Shown here one piece after another: positions 195 to 12,405 of a stretch of DNA of 64,000 nucleotides. Source of the DNA: an uncultured Gammaproteobacteria bacterium (GTDB taxonomy: Bacteria; Patescibacteriota; Patescibacteriia; UBA9934; GWF2-40-263); the NCBI GenBank assembly GCA_964402425.1, contig CAYOCD010000005.1, forward strand, positions 6,064 to 70,063, given 5' to 3'. Both the position numbers and the translations under genes were made by a program. Under the pieces are notes generated by a model. It saw nothing but the letters and a program-made list of their open reading frames with translations. It was not told the origin of the DNA and did no database searches. Position 1 is the first letter of the stretch. The number at the start of each line of letters is the position of its first letter.

Positions 195-1394
195 TTAGAG
201 CCAATATTTTTCATCCACACTTACGGGACTAATTGAACGAAGTGTTTGCACGAGAGGTGGAAGTGTTTTTAAGACGTAGTCGATATCAGCCTCTGTTGTT
301 GTGTGCCCAAGCGAGAAGCGCATGGAACCATGCGCAACCTCATAAGGAAATCCGAGAGCAAGAATCACATGAGACGGATCAAGAGATGCGGAAGTGCACG
401 CACTCCCGGTTGAAGCATAAATTCCAGCCGCATCAAGATACAAAAGAAGGGCTTCTCCTTCAATATCTATAAACGAAATATTTACATTGTTTGGTAAACG
501 ATGTGTACGATCACCATTCACGCGTGTGCGTGGAATAGATTCTAAAATGCCGTTTATAAGTTTATCGCGAAGTGGAATCAGTCGTATTGTCTCGGTATTT
601 TTTTCTTCTTGAACGATCTTGAACGCTTTTGCGAATCCGACGATCCCCGCAACATCTTCTGTTCCCGGTCTGAGACCACGCTCTTGCGCACCACCAAACA
701 TGAGAGGCTCGAGTTTGATTCCACGTTTCACATAAAGTAATCCTGTTCCTTTTGGTCCGTATATTTTTGGACTGTTCATGGTTAACATGTCGACATGCAA
801 CTTTTCTACGTTCATGTCGAGATACGCTGCCGCTTGGCATGCATCTGTGTGGAACACAAGATGCGGTAACTTATGTTCCTCGCGATATTTTTGAATCATG
901 TTTCCAATTTCTACAATGGGTTGAATCGTTCCAACTTCGTTATTGGCATACATGATCGAAACAAGAATTGTGTCTTCGGTCAATGCATCTTCGATCTGCT
1001 TCGGATCGATTATTCCCTCTTTACTTGGTTTCAAATACGTCACGCGAAATCCTTCTTTCTTTTCAAGACGAATGCAGGCTTCAAGCACCGCATGGTGTTC
1101 AAATGCGGTTGTGATGATGTGTGTACCGAACTGTTTGTTCATGCGCGCATAGCCAAGAATGGCGAGGTTGTCAGATTCTGTTCCGCCGGACGTAAACAAA
1201 AGTTCATCTGGACGAACATGTAAACAGTTCGCCATTGAAGCACGAGCTTCTCGTAATGCATCCGTCGCAACCTTTCCACGAGAATGAAAACTTGAAGGAT
1301 TGCCGTATTTATCTTTTAGGTACGGCAACATCACCTCCAAAACACGAGGATCAAGTGGGGTTGTTGCAGCGTGGTCAAGATAGATATCAGACAT
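195..1394 (-). CDS. iscS: cysteine desulfurase (class V aminotransferase, IscS/NifS family)
   Basis: 406-aa ORF, MSDIYLDHAATTPLDPRVLEVMLPYL...SSFHSRGKVATDALREAR...HVDMLTMNSPKIYGPKGTGLLYV. Start taken at second Met (1394) by analogy with IscS N-termini; 1415 also possible. Confidence 0.9.
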   Translation of the reverse strand: MSDIYLDHAATTPLDPRVLEVMLPYLKDKYGNPSSFHSRGKVATDALREARASMANCLHVRPDELLFTSGGTESDNLAILGYARMNKQFGTHIITTAFEHHAVLEACIRLEKKEGFRVTYLKPSKEGIIDPKQIEDALTEDTILVSIMYANNEVGTIQPIVEIGNMIQKYREEHKLPHLVFHTDACQAAAYLDMNVEKLHVDMLTMNSPKIYGPKGTGLLYVKRGIKLEPLMFGGAQERGLRPGTEDVAGIVGFAKAFKIVQEEKNTETIRLIPLRDKLINGILESIPRTRVNGDRTHRLPNNVNISFIDIEGEALLLYLDAAGIYASTGSACTSASLDPSHVILALGFPYEVAHGSMRFSLGHTTTEADIDYVLKTLPPLVQTLRSISPVSVDEKYWL

Positions 1395-7872: not shown

Positions 7873-9288
7873 TTACGTTGTGTATAAACGTTGTTTAATA
7901 AGCTCAAGATCGTGTTGAAGTTTTTCGTCTCCTGTTAAACACTCCGAAATTTTTTCATACGCATGCATGGCTGTTGTGTGATCGCGTCCACCAAGCTCGT
8001 TTCCAATCGAAGGATAACTCGATTTCATCTCTTCTCGCATAAGATACATGATGATTTGTCTTGGAAACGCGAGTTTTTTCTCTCGGCTCTTTCCCAATAA
8101 ATCTTCTATACGAATATCAAAATAGATGGAAACTGTATGAATCAGTTGTTTTGGTGTGATGTTCTTTTTGAGAGAGGATGGTTGGAAACTGGTAAGAATT
8201 GGTTTGACAGTATCGAGTGTTGGACGAACATTTTTGAATTGGTGAAATGCAATCACTTTGTTTAATGCACCTTCGAGTTCTCGAACGTTTGTTTGTACAA
8301 TAGAAGCAATATGATTGAGAATATCATGTTCAATTTGATACACCTTTTCTCTACATTTTGACTCCAAAATTGCAACACGTGTTTCAAAATCTGGCGAACC
8401 AACATCTGCCATCATTCCCTGTTCAAGACGAGAAGAAAGACGTGCTTCAAGGGATGGGATCGCTTTTGGAGGACGATCTGAAGAAAAAACAAGTTGTTTA
8501 TTGTTTTGGAACAGTTGATTGAATGTATGAAAAAACTCTTCCTGTGTACTCTCTTTTCCTCCAAGAAATTGAATATCATCAATAAGAAGTGTATCAACCA
8601 TGCGATATCGATTCTTAAAATCATTCATTTTACCTGTGCGAAGGGCAGATACGTAATCATTTGTGAAGCGTTCACAAGTAATATAAAGGATACGAAGATT
8701 AGGGTTTTTCCGTAAAAGTTCGTTTCCAATTGCTTGAAGCAAGTGTGTTTTTCCAAGTCCTACACCTCCATAAATATAAAGAGGATTATAAACTCCACCC
8801 GGTTGACTGGATACAGCTTGCGCAGCTGCATGAGCAAGTTCATTTTGTTTTCCAACGATAAATGTTTCAAAACAATATTTTCCGTTTAATGAAAATTCAC
8901 CTGTTCGATTTTCTTGGATTTCTGATGGTTGTTCCGTAAAAAAATCTTTCGGTGTTTGTACTGGTGGCTCTTGTTGTTGAATGAAAACAGGTTGTGGTTC
9001 TGTTTTTCCTACAACAGGAACATTTTGAGCAGGAATTTGTCGTGTTTCAACACGAAAAGCAACATGTTTGATGTTTCCTCCTGTATGTTCTTGAACAGAC
9101 TTAATAATTTCACGTGCATGCTTCTTTTCAAGCCATGTAAGCGTAAACATGTTTGGAACACCAATCGTAAGAGAGTGTTCTGTTATTTCAGAAATAAATG
9201 TGCTTTTGAACCAAGTCGTGAAATTAGCTTTACTCAGTGACAATTCAAGTTCACCAAGAACAGCTTGCCAGAGTTCGATCGTGTTCAT
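7873..9288 (-). CDS. dnaA: chromosomal replication initiator DnaA
   Basis: 471 aa; Walker A GGVGLGKTHLLQAIGNE; C-terminal DNA-binding domain ...AFPRQIIMYLMREEMKSSYPSIGNELGGRDHTTAMHAYEKI... Confidence 0.97.
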   Translation of the reverse strand: MNTIELWQAVLGELELSLSKANFTTWFKSTFISEITEHSLTIGVPNMFTLTWLEKKHAREIIKSVQEHTGGNIKHVAFRVETRQIPAQNVPVVGKTEPQPVFIQQQEPPVQTPKDFFTEQPSEIQENRTGEFSLNGKYCFETFIVGKQNELAHAAAQAVSSQPGGVYNPLYIYGGVGLGKTHLLQAIGNELLRKNPNLRILYITCERFTNDYVSALRTGKMNDFKNRYRMVDTLLIDDIQFLGGKESTQEEFFHTFNQLFQNNKQLVFSSDRPPKAIPSLEARLSSRLEQGMMADVGSPDFETRVAILESKCREKVYQIEHDILNHIASIVQTNVRELEGALNKVIAFHQFKNVRPTLDTVKPILTSFQPSSLKKNITPKQLIHTVSIYFDIRIEDLLGKSREKKLAFPRQIIMYLMREEMKSSYPSIGNELGGRDHTTAMHAYEKISECLTGDEKLQHDLELIKQRLYTT

Positions 9289-9524
9289 AACGACAATTTA
9301 TGAGAAAAAACAATTGAAATACACAGATGAAGGAGTTTGATGTGGACTAGTGTAACTATTTATCCACAAGTGAGCAAGAGTGAGAATTGTTTGTAAAGCT
9401 CTTGATAAGTTGTGGATAGCATGTTAGTATCTGTGTACTTGTCCTGGCTAGCCACCTATTGCTTTATTAGGTATAAAGCTGGTCAGAGAAACCTGTTTAT
9501 CTTCAAAAGATTAATGTCGATTCT
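9289..9524. promoter_or_regulatory. dnaA upstream region with DnaA boxes; divergent rpmH promoter
   Basis: Perfect TTATCCACA at about 9359 and TGTGGATAG at about 9411, plus GATGTGGAC; candidate rpmH promoter TTGCTT...TATAAA. Confidence 0.55.
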
Positions 9525-9677
9525 ATGCCAAAGCGCACCCACCAACCAAAGAAGCTTAAACGCGTAAGAACACACGGTTTTCTTAAGCGAATGAGCACAA
9601 AAAACGGCCGAGAAGTTATTGCTCGTCGTCGTGCAAAAGGCCGCAAACGCCTTGCTCCAAAAGCAACAAGTAAATAA
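9525..9677 (+). CDS. rpmH: 50S ribosomal protein L34
   Basis: [50 protein letters not shown]; absent from the six-frame track because it is short; classic rpmH-rnpA order. Confidence 0.9.
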
Positions 9678-9683
9678 ACCCCT

Positions 9684-10022
9684 GTGTTTCCTTCCGTAAA
9701 TCGCTTACGAAATGAAAAAGATATCAAAACACTCTTCTCAAAAGGTAAGAGTGTTTTTGATGTCACGCTCGGCATCCGTTTTGCACCAAATAACCTTCCA
9801 ATTACACGTTTTACCGTTGTTGTCGGGACAAAAATCTCGAAACGGGCTGTGGTTCGAAACAAAATAAAGCGAAGAATACGTGGTATCGTTGAAAAGCGGC
9901 TCCTTGAGATCAAACCAGGGTTTGATGTACTATTCCTTGTAAAGAAGGAAACCATCGAACAAACACATAAACAGCTTGTTGAGCAGATTGAACGCATGTT
10001 TAAACGAGCAAAACTCGTATGA
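9684..10022 (+). CDS. rnpA: RNase P protein component
   Basis: 112 aa, basic; ...[16 protein letters not shown]...; follows rpmH. Confidence 0.85.
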
Positions 10023-10294
10023 AATTCCGATTTTGGATTCTACCAAGTTTGATCGTTCTTCTCGTAATTCGGATTTATCAGAAGACCTTGTCTTTTGACC
10101 ATGGTCTCATGAAGTTGTTTTACCCCAATGGGTATTGTCGATTTTATCCAACCTGTTCAGAGTACGGATATAGAGCAATCGAGAAATACGGCCTTATAAA
10201 AGGTGGATGGCTCACCGTGCGACGCATCCTTCGATGTAATCCGTTTAATAAAGGGGGAATCGACGAGGTTCCTGAACAAAAACACAGACATTAA
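10019..10294 (+). CDS. yidD: membrane protein insertion efficiency factor YidD
   Basis: Conserved motif [20 protein letters not shown]; 4-nt overlap with rnpA. Confidence 0.85.
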
Positions 10295-10351: not shown

Positions 10352-11071
10352 CTATTTTTCCCAAAGCATTTCAAACATTTCTTTAAAAATATCCACCATA
10401 CTTGGCACTTCAATCACAACCGCAAGTGCGGTTTGGTCTGGGTTTACAACAAGAATCTTGTCGTCAAAGATATCCATCGTACTTTTAAATGTATGATTCT
10501 TGGGTAATACACGAACGTCTCGTAGAAGTTTTGTATCATCAGGACTTGCCTTAATAGAGTCTGCAGAGAGGAGAATACGAGTTTTGATCTTTGCATTTGC
10601 ACGATCGAACCGAAATTTCTGAAAAAAATCCGGATCAATTCCCTCCCAGGCTGTTGCACTTCCGATGGCAGAGTAGGATTTCCCTTTATATTCAACCAGA
10701 ATTCCTGTGTAAAAACGTTCAAGCTCCTGTTTGGTTTCAATAAAACGTAAGCCGACCGTTGAAACAGTTTGTTTCTCGATCGTTTTTAGTTCCGGAATGA
10801 TCGCCTCAAAGGATTCGAGGCGCTTTTCATATTGTCCGGCCACTTTATCAGGCTTTTCTGCTCGATAGAGTCTTTTTGATTTATGGAAATATGTAGAAGC
10901 AAAGCCTTTTTCATGCAAAGACTTAAGGATTGGATAAATTGTGGTGCGTTTAACTCCAACTTCTTTGGAAAGGGCGATGGCATTTCCTCCCCCAATCTTA
11001 AGTAAAGCAAGATATGTTCCAGCTTCATCTTCTGTTAACCCGAGGGTTTGAAGGGTAGAAATATGTGACAT
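10352..11071 (-). CDS. TrmB-family transcriptional regulator (winged HTH)
   Basis: N-terminus MSHISTLQTLGLTEDEAGTYLALLKIGGGNAIALSKEVGVKRTTIYPILKSLHEKGF is typical of TrmB; a paralog is at 38450. Confidence 0.75.
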   Translation of the reverse strand: MSHISTLQTLGLTEDEAGTYLALLKIGGGNAIALSKEVGVKRTTIYPILKSLHEKGFASTYFHKSKRLYRAEKPDKVAGQYEKRLESFEAIIPELKTIEKQTVSTVGLRFIETKQELERFYTGILVEYKGKSYSAIGSATAWEGIDPDFFQKFRFDRANAKIKTRILLSADSIKASPDDTKLLRDVRVLPKNHTFKSTMDIFDDKILVVNPDQTALAVVIEVPSMVDIFKEMFEMLWEK

Positions 11072-11116
11072 ATTTGTATGTCAAAATTTTACAACGTAAT
11101 TAATCTATTGTCAAGC

Positions 11117-11136
11117 TTTATCTAAATTTAGATAAA
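11117..11136. promoter_or_regulatory. perfect 20-bp palindrome TTTATCTAAATTTAGATAAA (candidate TrmB operator)
   Basis: Abuts the -35 (TTGACA, minus strand 11115-11110) of the divergent TrmB gene and lies 28 nt upstream of the -35 of the + strand gene pair. Confidence 0.55.
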
Positions 11137-11162
11137 ATATTTGCTAATTATGTCAGGAATCA

Positions 11163-11191
11163 TTGACAAAAAGGCAAAAAAGAGGTAAACT
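11163..11191 (+). promoter_or_regulatory. sigma70-like promoter for the 11295 gene
   Basis: TTGACA-17 nt-TAAACT. Confidence 0.5.
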
Positions 11192-11238
11192 GATGTCATC
11201 AAGAATGAGAGAGCGATAAGGAATCGCACCTCACTTGA

Positions 11239-11294
11239 GGAGAGAGTTCATTCGAAACAAGTCCTGACATTTAACGATCAGGCAAGGAGAAAAG
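11239..11294 (+). promoter_or_regulatory. conserved structured 5' leader, copy 1
   Basis: GGAGAGAGTTCATTCGAAACAAGTCCTGAC-ATTTAAC-GATCAGGCAAGGAGAAAAG-ATG; hairpin CCTGA/TCAGG directly 5' of the AAGGAG RBS; near-identical to 11730-11784. Confidence 0.5.
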
Positions 11295-11630
11295 ATGGAT
11301 AAGCATTTTGTCTTTTCTGTGTTCTCATCTGATTTTAGGGTGATTAACGGGGTGTTGCATACCTATGAGACGTGCCCATGCTCCATTAAATTTCCAAAAA
11401 ACAAGGAGGAGAAAGGGGTCTTCGTTCAGAAAATTACCGATTCGTTAAGAGAACTTGGGTTTTCTAAAGTAGTGGTTCACTATAGCCATTATAAAAACCC
11501 AATATTTGGTCCTGATCATTCTCTTTACGATCTCAGAGAATATATTCCCACTGCTCGGGGATCTTGCACAAGAATGCCCATACTCCCCGATTTGATCGAG
11601 ACAGAGTTCGATATGGGGAAACAGTCCTAA
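11295..11630 (+). CDS. hypothetical protein (111 aa)
   Basis: ORF with AAGGAG RBS 6 nt upstream; no recognisable family. Confidence 0.5.
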   Translation: MDKHFVFSVFSSDFRVINGVLHTYETCPCSIKFPKNKEEKGVFVQKITDSLRELGFSKVVVHYSHYKNPIFGPDHSLYDLREYIPTARGSCTRMPILPDLIETEFDMGKQS

Positions 11631-11729
11631 CCCATCGGACATTAAACCGAATTGAGTACACGACACTCGTGCTCTTTGGATGATGGGTTCCCTTCTGGGA
11701 TGATCAGTGGGTGCTGGTCAATCGAGATT

Positions 11730-11784
11730 GGAGAGAGTTCATTCAAAAAAGTCCTGACGTATGAAGATCAGGCAAGGAGAAGAA
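11730..11784 (+). promoter_or_regulatory. conserved structured 5' leader, copy 2
   Basis: GGAGAGAGTTCATTCAAAAAAGTCCTGAC-GTATGAA-GATCAGGCAAGGAGAAGAA-ATG; same stem, different loop. Confidence 0.5.
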
Positions 11785-12354
11785 ATGTTCAACGACAAAC
11801 GTGCCTATGCAAAGTTTCAAATCGAAAAGGCCGGCAAACACATGCAGGTCGTTACGTTTGAGCAGATTGAGGAGTTGCTCGGTGTGCAATTCAACGATGC
11901 TGTTTTACGCGAACATTTTAATCACGGGATTCGGTTGGGTGAATCCGAACTCCGTTTGTTTGGAGACACACACATTCTCATGCCAGGATTCCCCATCTCT
12001 ATCAACGACATGGAGTACAGCGAACAATGGAATAAGATGACGTGTCGATCCGCAGAGTTGGGTGGGTGGATCCTGATGCGTAAGACTCCGGCCAAATTTG
12101 GAACACCCATTCTGGCCGGAGAGTCCATTGCAAACATCCACGACGTCTTCTATGTGGACTTCATTCACAAGAAGCTCTTTGGGAAGCCACTGTTCGATTT
12201 CAATGGGTATGAAACCATTCGAACGTCGGACACGTGGGAACCGTTTTGCAAGTGTCGCGCCGGGTACAACCAATATCCAGATCGACGCAATCGCATTGAA
12301 GAGTTGAGTGAAACAGTTAGCAAAGACGACTTCATGGTGTATGTCATGAAGTAA
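11785..12354 (+). CDS. hypothetical protein (190 aa)
   Basis: Start set at the ATG after AGGAGAAGAA by analogy with copy 1; the in-frame ATG at 11761 lies inside the leader hairpin loop. No recognisable family. Confidence 0.5.
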   Translation: MFNDKRAYAKFQIEKAGKHMQVVTFEQIEELLGVQFNDAVLREHFNHGIRLGESELRLFGDTHILMPGFPISINDMEYSEQWNKMTCRSAELGGWILMRKTPAKFGTPILAGESIANIHDVFYVDFIHKKLFGKPLFDFNGYETIRTSDTWEPFCKCRAGYNQYPDRRNRIEELSETVSKDDFMVYVMK

Positions 12355-12360
12355 TCAATC

Positions 12361-12405
12361 AAAAACTGCGCGCACAGAAACGAATCTGTGCGCGCTATTT
12401 TATTT
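12361..12405. terminator. bidirectional terminator
   Basis: GCGCGCACAGA-AACGAA-TCTGTGCGCGC 11-bp stem flanked by AAAAA and TATTTTATTT. Confidence 0.65.

Follow-up and report, generated by a model that had tools for sequence, protein, structure and literature searches.

Why should two adjacent genes with no resemblance to one another be introduced by almost the same untranslated sequence? The question is posed by the window analyzed here, a stretch of 64,000 nucleotides (nt), or 64 kb, of contig CAYOCD010000005.1 from an uncultured member of the Patescibacteria, in which two small plus-strand genes each start behind a copy of one leader that carries a short hairpin just ahead of the Shine–Dalgarno (SD) sequence. 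We compared this locus (W) across eight closely related Candidatus Uhrbacteria (Ca. Uhrbacteria) genomes, reaching the further relatives through the regulator protein encoded beside the genes (86-94% identity). Across this set, the leader hairpins and a larger structure between the genes are conserved, strand-specific, covarying, confined to this one operon, and fixed in position relative to stop codons, SD sequences, and start codons, while the genes between the conserved modules are exchanged between relatives. These modules are probably cis elements that act at the RNA level in a cassette-like operon and are maintained by selection. Whether the hairpins would also act as punctuation of a polycistronic mRNA, through processing or stability, is a functional reading on which we are evenly divided.

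The two leader copies are close to identical and are peculiar to this place in the window. Copy 1 (11239..11294, plus strand) consists of the linker GGAGAGAGUUCAUUCGAAACAAGU, a hairpin in which CCUGA (11263-11267) pairs with UCAGG (11278-11282), and the SD sequence AAGGAG (11284-11289); copy 2 (11730..11784, plus strand) has the same linker, CCUGA at 11753-11757, UCAGG at 11768-11772, and AAGGAG at 11774-11779. The start codons, at 11295 and 11785, each lie 5 nt 3' of AAGGAG. The sequence GGAGAGAGTTCATTC occurs exactly twice in the 64 kb, at 11239 and 11730, as does the pattern GTCCTGAC-N7-GATCAGGCAAGGAG, for which 100 shuffles give an expectation of 0. A repeat search pairs the same two copies (D1 and D2) at a spacing of 490/491, a leader model, R2, matches copy 1 at E = 4e-11, and nothing resembling the leader is found elsewhere in the window. 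The two copies are separated by one indel (GAAACAAGT versus AAAAAAGT), by 4 of the 7 loop-core positions (ATTTAAC versus GTATGAA), and by the three bases preceding ATG. A first-pass annotation of the window had placed both copies correctly, each ending at the ATG of a different gene, and had rightly seen no obvious similarity between the two proteins (BLASTP E = 6.2). Some of its details need amendment: its gapless consensus does not accommodate copy 2 because of the 1-nt indel, the loops it called fully different are unlike at only those 4 of 7 core positions, and the second protein has 189 rather than 190 amino acids (aa).

The same annotation had proposed a conserved cis-regulatory RNA element and suggested looking for the motif in related genomes. 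The search bears this proposal out in part. The structure is kept across the eight Ca. Uhrbacteria genomes, where a hairpin with its pairing intact precedes both orthologues and unrelated genes at the locus; in sister species, far from being absent upstream of orthologues, the leader directly precedes the orthologous 189-aa gene. A short hairpin lies 0-6 nt ahead of the ribosome-binding site (RBS) in 20 of the 22 genes that have a separate upstream region, and these 20 leaders, from nine loci, share one order of parts: an A-rich linker, the hairpin, 0-6 nt, the SD sequence, 5-8 nt, and the start codon. Each cistron is thus introduced by a purine- or A-rich single-stranded linker, a hairpin 0-6 nt before the SD sequence, and the SD sequence with its start codon.

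It is the pairing of the leader stems that persists, more than their sequence. The stems include CCUGA/UCAGG, CCCGA/UUGGG, CCCGA/UCGGG, CCUGA/UCGGG, GGCGAU/AUCGCC, GGCGAUC/GAUUGCC(U), GGCGGU/AUUGCC, and GACGA/UCGUC, plus two imperfect ones, and they enclose loops of 4-10 nt. In a loop-trimmed alignment, 94.4% of cells pair, double changes are found in 3 of 5 pairs (21 cells), and the covariation score of 0.66 compares with 0.30 in shuffles and was reached by 0 of 500 of them. An independent count finds a stem of at least 5 bp ending no more than 4 nt from the SD sequence in 15 of 17 leaders, versus 15% of shuffled leaders. R2 matches these leaders alone; its alignment shifts the GGCGAT class by two columns and so understates the pairing. 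Among W, L013, L015, L017, and L022, the 5' untranslated region (UTR) together with the non-loop part of the leader is ~100% identical, while four-fold degenerate sites in the same five are only 71-84% identical. Such near-invariance, set against the divergence at four-fold sites, shows purifying selection.

What the hairpin binds or does is narrowed by the same comparison. Since other copies carry an altogether different stem, the hairpin is unlikely to be a sequence-specific site for a protein, a possibility that the first-pass annotation had entertained. Another of its suggestions, a small riboswitch-like module, does not hold: the stem has 5 bp, neither loop nor junction has conserved nucleotides, and there is neither an expression platform nor a match in Rfam. 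A dimeric DNA operator at CCTGA-N-TCAGG was also considered and rejected, given that its two halves stand anywhere from 4 to 10 nt apart and that other copies have a different sequence. Nor does the leader stand alone: it is the 3' end of a larger structured unit (11621-11784) that had been overlooked.

The remainder of that unit is a structured intercistronic RNA element of ~115 nt (11621..11737, plus strand) with two domains. In P1 (11630-11688), the outer stem ACCCAUC/GAUGGGU has 7 bp, the middle helix 5 bp, and the terminal hairpin 6 bp; P2 (11691-11731) is a long bulged hairpin of ~16 bp, closed by the first two G's of leader copy 2 (of GGAGAGAG). The 154-nt gap between the two window genes is homologous to the intergenic gaps of other arrays, in which most genes have a P1/P2 element 3' of them, for a total of 13 copies in seven loci, and RNAalifold recovers the same two adjacent extended hairpins across these spacers. 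A model of the spacer, R1 (114 positions, 34 pairs), matches the window copy with 113 bits (E = 1e-23), finds three held-out copies in L032 (E = 1e-22, 2.5e-21, and 8e-16), and, over the window and all related loci fetched, matches array spacers alone and always on the sense strand. Standard pairs make up 95.2% of cells over the 13 copies, compared with 30-43% in slid controls; 16 of the 34 pairs show double (compensatory) changes, and the covariation score is 0.36 versus 0.19 in shuffles (0 of 500). The middle helix of P1 shows this most plainly, appearing as CCGAA/UUUGG, CCGAA/UUCGG, CUCGGA/UCCGAG, CUGAA/UUCAG, CCAGA/UCUGG, and CUUGAA/UUCAAG.

The strand bias speaks for RNA. G-U cells number 47 and A-C cells 6, such that 95% of cells are paired on the mRNA strand and 86% on the opposite one; the minimum free energy of the window spacer is -38.3 kcal/mol in sense and -28.8 in antisense, and single-sequence folds of two other copies reach z = -4.9 and -5.3. 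The element begins at or just past the upstream stop codon. It also follows terminal genes, directly before the true terminator (L023 copy B, L032 copy 3), and so belongs to the upstream cistron rather than serving as a sensor for a downstream gene. With Rfam 15, neither leader nor spacer gives a match at E <= 10, the whole window has none at the gathering threshold, and four other loci holding nine copies have none at E <= 1. The ~115-nt two-hairpin element is, in our view, well supported as a candidate new family of structured RNAs.

Elsewhere, a metagenome scan with the spacer pattern gave two hits, both one chance match in a large open reading frame (ORF) of an organism with 55% GC; in a genome scan, two of four hits (Verrucomicrobia, Gammaproteobacteria) were GC-rich chance matches; and neither a scan of viral contigs nor a phage BLAST gave a spacer-like match. 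Catalytic and tRNA-like readings were tried as well. A hammerhead-like arrangement, GGAUGA-hairpin-CGAAC, was noticed by eye and dropped when its core proved variable (GUGUGA, GAUUGA, and GGACGA in other copies), and Rfam holds no match to self-cleaving ribozymes (hammerhead, twister, pistol, hatchet, and others). The 7-bp P1 stem might recall a tRNA-like or RNase P substrate; ARAGORN finds nothing, and the reading, having no further support, was set aside.

Three smaller features of these modules deserve mention. GUCC before P1 can pair with GGAC past the 5' strand of P1 (window 11624-11640), and this helix covaries to AGCC/GGCU in L023 and L032, as an H-type pseudoknot or an alternative to P1. 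It is present in the window, L022, L023 (copy A), L026, L030 (A and B), and L032 (1-3), where the minimum-energy fold of copy 2 has it in place of P1, and is absent from both L019 copies, L023 copy B, and L030 copy C. The motif AGTCCTRAC occurs at 11260-11269, 11623-11632, and 11749-11758, at the 5' edge of each pre-SD hairpin (AAGTCCTGAC) and where the spacer begins (CAGTCCTAAC); the arrangement recurs in L022, L026, and L030 and not in L023, and it could mark exchange junctions or be a coincidence. Lastly, GATC/TGATCA lies in the 3' arm region of both leader hairpins (11276 and 11767) and in the P2 stem (11704), and in relatives additionally in the P1 terminal hairpin, a concentration that adjoins replication-origin genes.

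While these modules stay constant, the genes between them do not. The array fills a slot between a dnaA-rpmH-rnpA-yidD block and the DUF167-nfo-tig genes, and in the different genomes this slot holds 1-6 mostly unrelated orphan genes: of 141, 81, and 87 aa and more in L019; 121 and 200 aa in L023; 148 aa in L024; 119 and 129 aa in L026; 153, 223, 98, 146, 172, and 183 aa in L030; and about 124, 109, and 63 aa in L032. The slot proteins have no significant mutual similarity, with the exception of the second window gene and a gene in L022, and two of the six L030 genes both look like receiver (REC-like) domains. Seven further array proteins were searched against Pfam, and the six of L030 against PADLOC, with a single match: the last of the six L030 genes (444-995, minus strand of that locus) matches the Pycsar transmembrane effector PycTM (PF18967; PADLOC E = 7e-14). 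Together with the two REC-like genes, this hints that the slot may hold defense or signaling genes. In L026 (1416-2153 and 4285-5016), the far end of the slot is occupied by another TrmB-family gene, and unrelated genes lie on the opposite strand, so the slot also accepts larger insertions. In relatives, this variable slot again has the regulator beside it, as homologues of 86-100% identity; those at <=76% identity lie in another context, with no array.

Gain and loss can be followed most closely around the first window gene. The sister species L013, L015, and L017 (the last being GTDB genome Candidatus Uhrbacteria RIFOXYB2_FULL_45_11) have no gene 1: past the regulator come an intergenic region equal in length and nearly identical in sequence to that of the window, one leader, and then the 189-aa gene; L014 is identical in sequence to L017 and covers just 60 nt upstream of the gene. 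Gene 1 and one leader copy are therefore a 491-bp presence/absence difference: a direct repeat of the leader flanks the 491-bp cassette, which in the window comprises gene 1, its 3' element, and a leader, ahead of the leader and 189-aa gene. L022 has a different first gene, of 259 aa, set between these same leaders and spacer. Nucleotide distances in gene 2 order these genomes as L013, L017, W, then the pair of L022 and L015, and the two-gene state is scattered across this order, which implies at least 2-3 events of gain, loss, or replacement. The species in this comparison differ at 16-29% of four-fold degenerate sites; sampled strains of the window's own species show one single-nucleotide polymorphism in 1.3 kb across the locus. 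The first-pass annotation had allowed that the similarity of the leaders might be a recent local duplication under no constraint. The half of this that concerns a recent event survives, as cassette gain or loss in a lineage whose sisters have one copy and no gene 1; the half that denies constraint does not.

The genes themselves are obscure. Gene 1 (11295..11630, plus strand, from the ORF list) encodes a 111-aa orphan whose UAA stop (11628-11630) falls inside the start of the intercistronic element. A search among 5.8 billion proteins gave no homologue outside its own species, which is near-clonal, and it is absent from the sister species. Gene 2 (11785..12357, plus strand) encodes a lineage-restricted protein of 189 aa with orthologues at 84-91% identity; within this sub-clade it is conserved as the final gene of the array. 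Public callers often give it 197 aa from an ATG at 11761, inside the hairpin loop; this codon has no SD sequence and is absent in orthologues, and the conserved start is 11785. Pfam and PADLOC have no match for either gene, and the AlphaFold models are unusable (pLDDT 45 for gene 1 and 40 for gene 2). The first gene in the L022 slot, mentioned above, is a distant paralogue of gene 2 (24% identity, E = 2e-9). An exhaustive phmmer search with gene 2 returned its own family, one 203-aa relative, one 3309-aa protein, and nothing else. Residues 20-96, around THILMPGF..INDM, match six repeats in the 3309-aa protein (P0125, E = 3e-8), and the N-terminal region also matches the 203-aa protein (P0126); judged by these matches, it may be a small domain also found in giant proteins. 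Two ideas about the array proteins were abandoned: an origin of gene 1 by tandem duplication of gene 2, for which there is no protein or DNA similarity, and a shared "C-x-C ... helix ... VVxY" module seen by eye, with a non-significant best BLAST E of 0.29.

Around these genes, the layout suggests a single transcription unit. The adjoining TrmB-family winged-helix regulator (10352..11071, minus strand; Pfam PF01978, E = 1e-14) is divergent from the array. Between the two divergent promoters lies a perfect palindrome, ATCTAAATTTAGAT (11120..11133), a candidate operator read from the sequence and the intergenic alignment; its core CTAAATTTAG is largely kept in relatives, with deviations in L023 and L030, and it may be bound by the TrmB-like regulator. 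A promoter scan gives a candidate sigma-70-like array promoter, TTGACA-17-TAAACT (11163..11191, plus strand, 10/12 matches), in a region kept in all relatives of the intergenic alignment; its -35 box overlaps the inverted repeat TGTCA-N8-TGACA (11151-11168). The same scan finds no promoter-like plus-strand site between gene 1 and gene 2. More generally, the divergent promoter region (11072-11200) is dense in operator-like symmetry whose cores are kept in most relatives: GATGTCATC stands at the predicted transcription start (11192-11200), which is placed from the -10 box alone, and further TGTCA copies lie close to the regulator's own promoter. The primary transcript would begin with a structured 5'-proximal domain (11199..11238, plus strand), in which an outer helix UCAAG/CUUGA encloses the hairpin GCGAU-AAGGA-AUCGC; the outer helix covaries, to UCGAG/CUCGA in L024 and AUCAAGA/UCUUGAU in L030. 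Downstream, the terminator scan finds a bidirectional intrinsic terminator (12368..12395), with 8 GC pairs in a stem of 11 bp and a T-run on each strand, that closes both the array and the convergent DUF167 gene. On the other side, the block of dnaA (minus strand), rpmH, rnpA, and yidD (7873-10294) is directly upstream of the regulator, which puts the variable array within ~3 kb of the likely replication origin.

How might the modules work together? In the reading we favor, P1 and P2 would be barriers at 3' ends or double-stranded sites for processing; the A-rich single-stranded linker would be the likely entry point for an endonuclease; and the pre-SD hairpin would become a 5'-proximal structure that protects or positions the downstream cistron. 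Each interchangeable gene would then be expressed from surroundings that are standard and self-contained. The near-identical noncoding repeats would, as a side effect, supply homology for the gain, loss, and replacement of genes. So construed, the locus would be a lineage-specific, three-module RNA punctuation of an operon of swappable orphan genes, through a previously undescribed set of hairpins.

Several observations weigh against this reading, or at least against its full extent. Alone, the CCUGA/UCAGG hairpin is worth ~-5 kcal/mol and has z-scores versus shuffles of +1.1 and +0.3; a single copy is thermodynamically weak, and its reality rests on the comparative evidence. That evidence has its own soft spots: in the loop-trimmed leader alignment, the stems were chosen and the loops trimmed by hand; the spacer alignment was fitted to R1; and only eight close genomes supplied the 13 spacers and 20 leaders, many of which are paralogous copies, so that independent events are far fewer than cells. 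A loose criterion for a near-SD hairpin is also satisfied by 39% of the other window genes. One version of the idea, insulation of the RBS by the hairpin, was discarded on finding that in-silico disruption leaves SD accessibility unchanged: the partition function gives 0.48 for the natural leader versus 0.51-0.53 for stem-disrupted ones, and the SD sequence lies outside the stem. Processing, stability effects, and co-transcription are all deduced from sequence. Finally, the first cistron carries a pre-SD hairpin despite its own 5'-terminal structured domain, which a model of pure protection of processed 5' ends does not explain; the hairpin may have some role in initiation.

The alternatives divide over whether the repeats act as DNA, as a switch, or not at all. 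The layout invites comparison with a chromosomal integron array, in that co-oriented, promoterless orphan ORFs follow one promoter and alternate with near-identical imperfect-palindrome repeats of ~115 nt, much as integron repeats of ~120 bp flank cassettes of mostly unknown function (PMC8876359). The repeats might accordingly be attC-like DNA sites, folded as single strands, at which a site-specific recombinase shuffles cassettes, with RNA effects secondary. Gene content does vary between very close relatives while the repeats stay constant, one spacer subtype stands beside four different upstream genes (W, L022, L030 copy B, and L032 copy 3), and AGTCCTRAC recurs at the 5' edge of hairpin and spacer in several arrays, though its absence from the L023 junctions weakens that point. 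We nonetheless think this quite unlikely. The ends of integron repeats bear inverse core sites, R'' (RYYYAAC) and R' (GTTRRRY), and crossover takes place in G|TT (PMC8876359). No such pair is present here: AACCCATC/GATGGGTT forms the outer stem, AAC and GTT lie on its outer rather than its inner side, GATGGGTT is followed by CCCTTCT, and in 13 of 13 copies no GTTRRRY complementary to the 5' end is found. The adjoining gene is always TrmB-like, and precomputed Pfam annotation shows no tyrosine recombinase within ~10 kb on either side in L005, from the window's species, or in flanks of up to 4-5 kb in L022-L032, the rest of the genome not having been searched. Integrons use the folded bottom strand (PMC8876359), whereas pairing here favors the top, or mRNA, strand by 47 G-U to 6 A-C. 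The gene flux can be explained, moreover, by ordinary homologous recombination, for which a 56-nt repeat at 90% identity and the spacers suffice. A hybrid view, to which we give only a slim chance, is an integron-like cassette system of the candidate phyla radiation (CPR) that lacks a classical integrase and attC core and whose repeats would be both exchange points and expression punctuation under one TrmB-family regulator beside the origin; orphan genes would be captured and shuffled by an unknown recombinase or by RNA- or single-stranded DNA-guided recombination.

A regulatory switch, that is, a small riboswitch or RNA-binding-protein site controlling the translation of each cistron through the leader hairpin or the larger element, is unlikely overall, and less plausible for the leader than for P1/P2. 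The hairpin does abut the SD sequence in nearly every cistron. The P1 outer stem and parts of its terminal loop (ACGACACUC) are conserved beyond the needs of pairing, as is typical of a protein or tertiary contact site, and the GUCC/GGAC-type helix in several copies would compete or stack with P1 and could serve as a switch. For the leader itself, the stem sequence changes fully, the loop is conserved neither in length nor in sequence, the SD sequence is not sequestered and its modeled accessibility is independent of the stem, and no terminator follows; the spacer, for its part, also stands after terminal genes with no cistron downstream, and the Rfam searches described above gave no match. 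The view that spacer and leader are a passive by-product, copied without function by recent duplication or recombination, draws on the single copy in sister species, which marks the second window copy as the product of a recent structural event, and on the virtual identity of sampled strains across the locus. It is very improbable: leader and spacer are conserved beyond neutral expectation (0-1 changes over ~75 nt against 16-29% at four-fold sites), the helices keep their pairing through compensatory changes, and the differences between the window copies concentrate in the loop and the bases just before ATG. Least credible, to the point of being nearly dismissible, are weak intrinsic terminators on the antisense strand, directed against read-through from convergent genes. 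The terminator scan marks both hairpins on the minus strand (CCTGATC...GTCAGG, then ACTTTTTTGA or ACTTGTTTCG), yet the stems have just 5-6 bp and 3 GC pairs, a T-run is found only in copy 2 and its L017 allele (other leaders have ACTTGTTTC or none, and other stem classes lack one), and a strong bidirectional terminator already exists at 12368-12395.

Set beside known systems, the punctuation we favor has partial analogues. Chromosomal integrons with VCR-type attC sites, and CALINs (attC clusters that lack an integrase), are alike in having co-oriented, promoterless genes of mostly unknown function behind one promoter, a near-identical imperfect-palindrome repeat of ~115-120 nt after each gene, and variable content in close relatives; attC repeats in general span about 60-140 nt. 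There is a further likeness in that integron repeats are transcribed and influence the expression of downstream cassettes (PMC8876359). Unlike integrons, the locus has no GTTRRRY/RYYYAAC core, a TrmB-like regulator in place of an adjoining integrase or attI, an mRNA-strand bias in pairing, and a P2 domain and pre-SD hairpin without integron counterpart. REP/BIME, ERIC, and Neisseria Correia elements resemble ours as structured repeats between cistrons, with transcription here presumed from operon layout. Those elements are co-transcribed and act as barriers to 3'-exonucleases or as RNase III substrates that set differential mRNA stability. They are scattered over a genome in tens to hundreds of copies; in contrast, R1 and R2 copies lie only inside the array, as judged from the 64-kb window and ~120 kb of related loci, none of which is a complete genome. 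No terminal inverted repeat or target duplication of the kind that marks miniature inverted-repeat transposable elements was seen.

A functional analogy may also be drawn with the plastid intercistronic expression element (IEE), to which our element has no sequence or structural relationship. The IEE is a short element between cistrons that makes operon genes into stable, translatable units (PMC2230500). It works through protein-defined ends in an organelle, while processing at our locus is only surmised. The ompA, ermC, and aprE leaders are stem-loop stabilizers of mRNA that act at the true 5' end of the transcript. Like them, the pre-SD hairpin is small, lies near the SD sequence without occluding it, and is free in sequence as long as it pairs; unlike them, it sits ~65 nt into the primary transcript or ~150 nt past the previous stop codon. 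Being internal, it could stabilize in their manner only after cleavage. The closest analogues are thus REP/ERIC/Correia and the IEE in function and the chromosomal integron in organization, and by the tests applied the locus is a member of none of these.

What would such an arrangement mean for its bearers? CPR bacteria, or Patescibacteria, have tiny genomes, and little is known of their post-transcriptional control or of how they acquire accessory genes. The locus is a compact and sharply bounded case, in which an RNA architecture is strongly constrained while the genes between its modules are swapped. Should the elements set processing or stability, the result would be an operon of natural "plug-and-play" design; a role in exchange as well would make them a new kind of cassette system.

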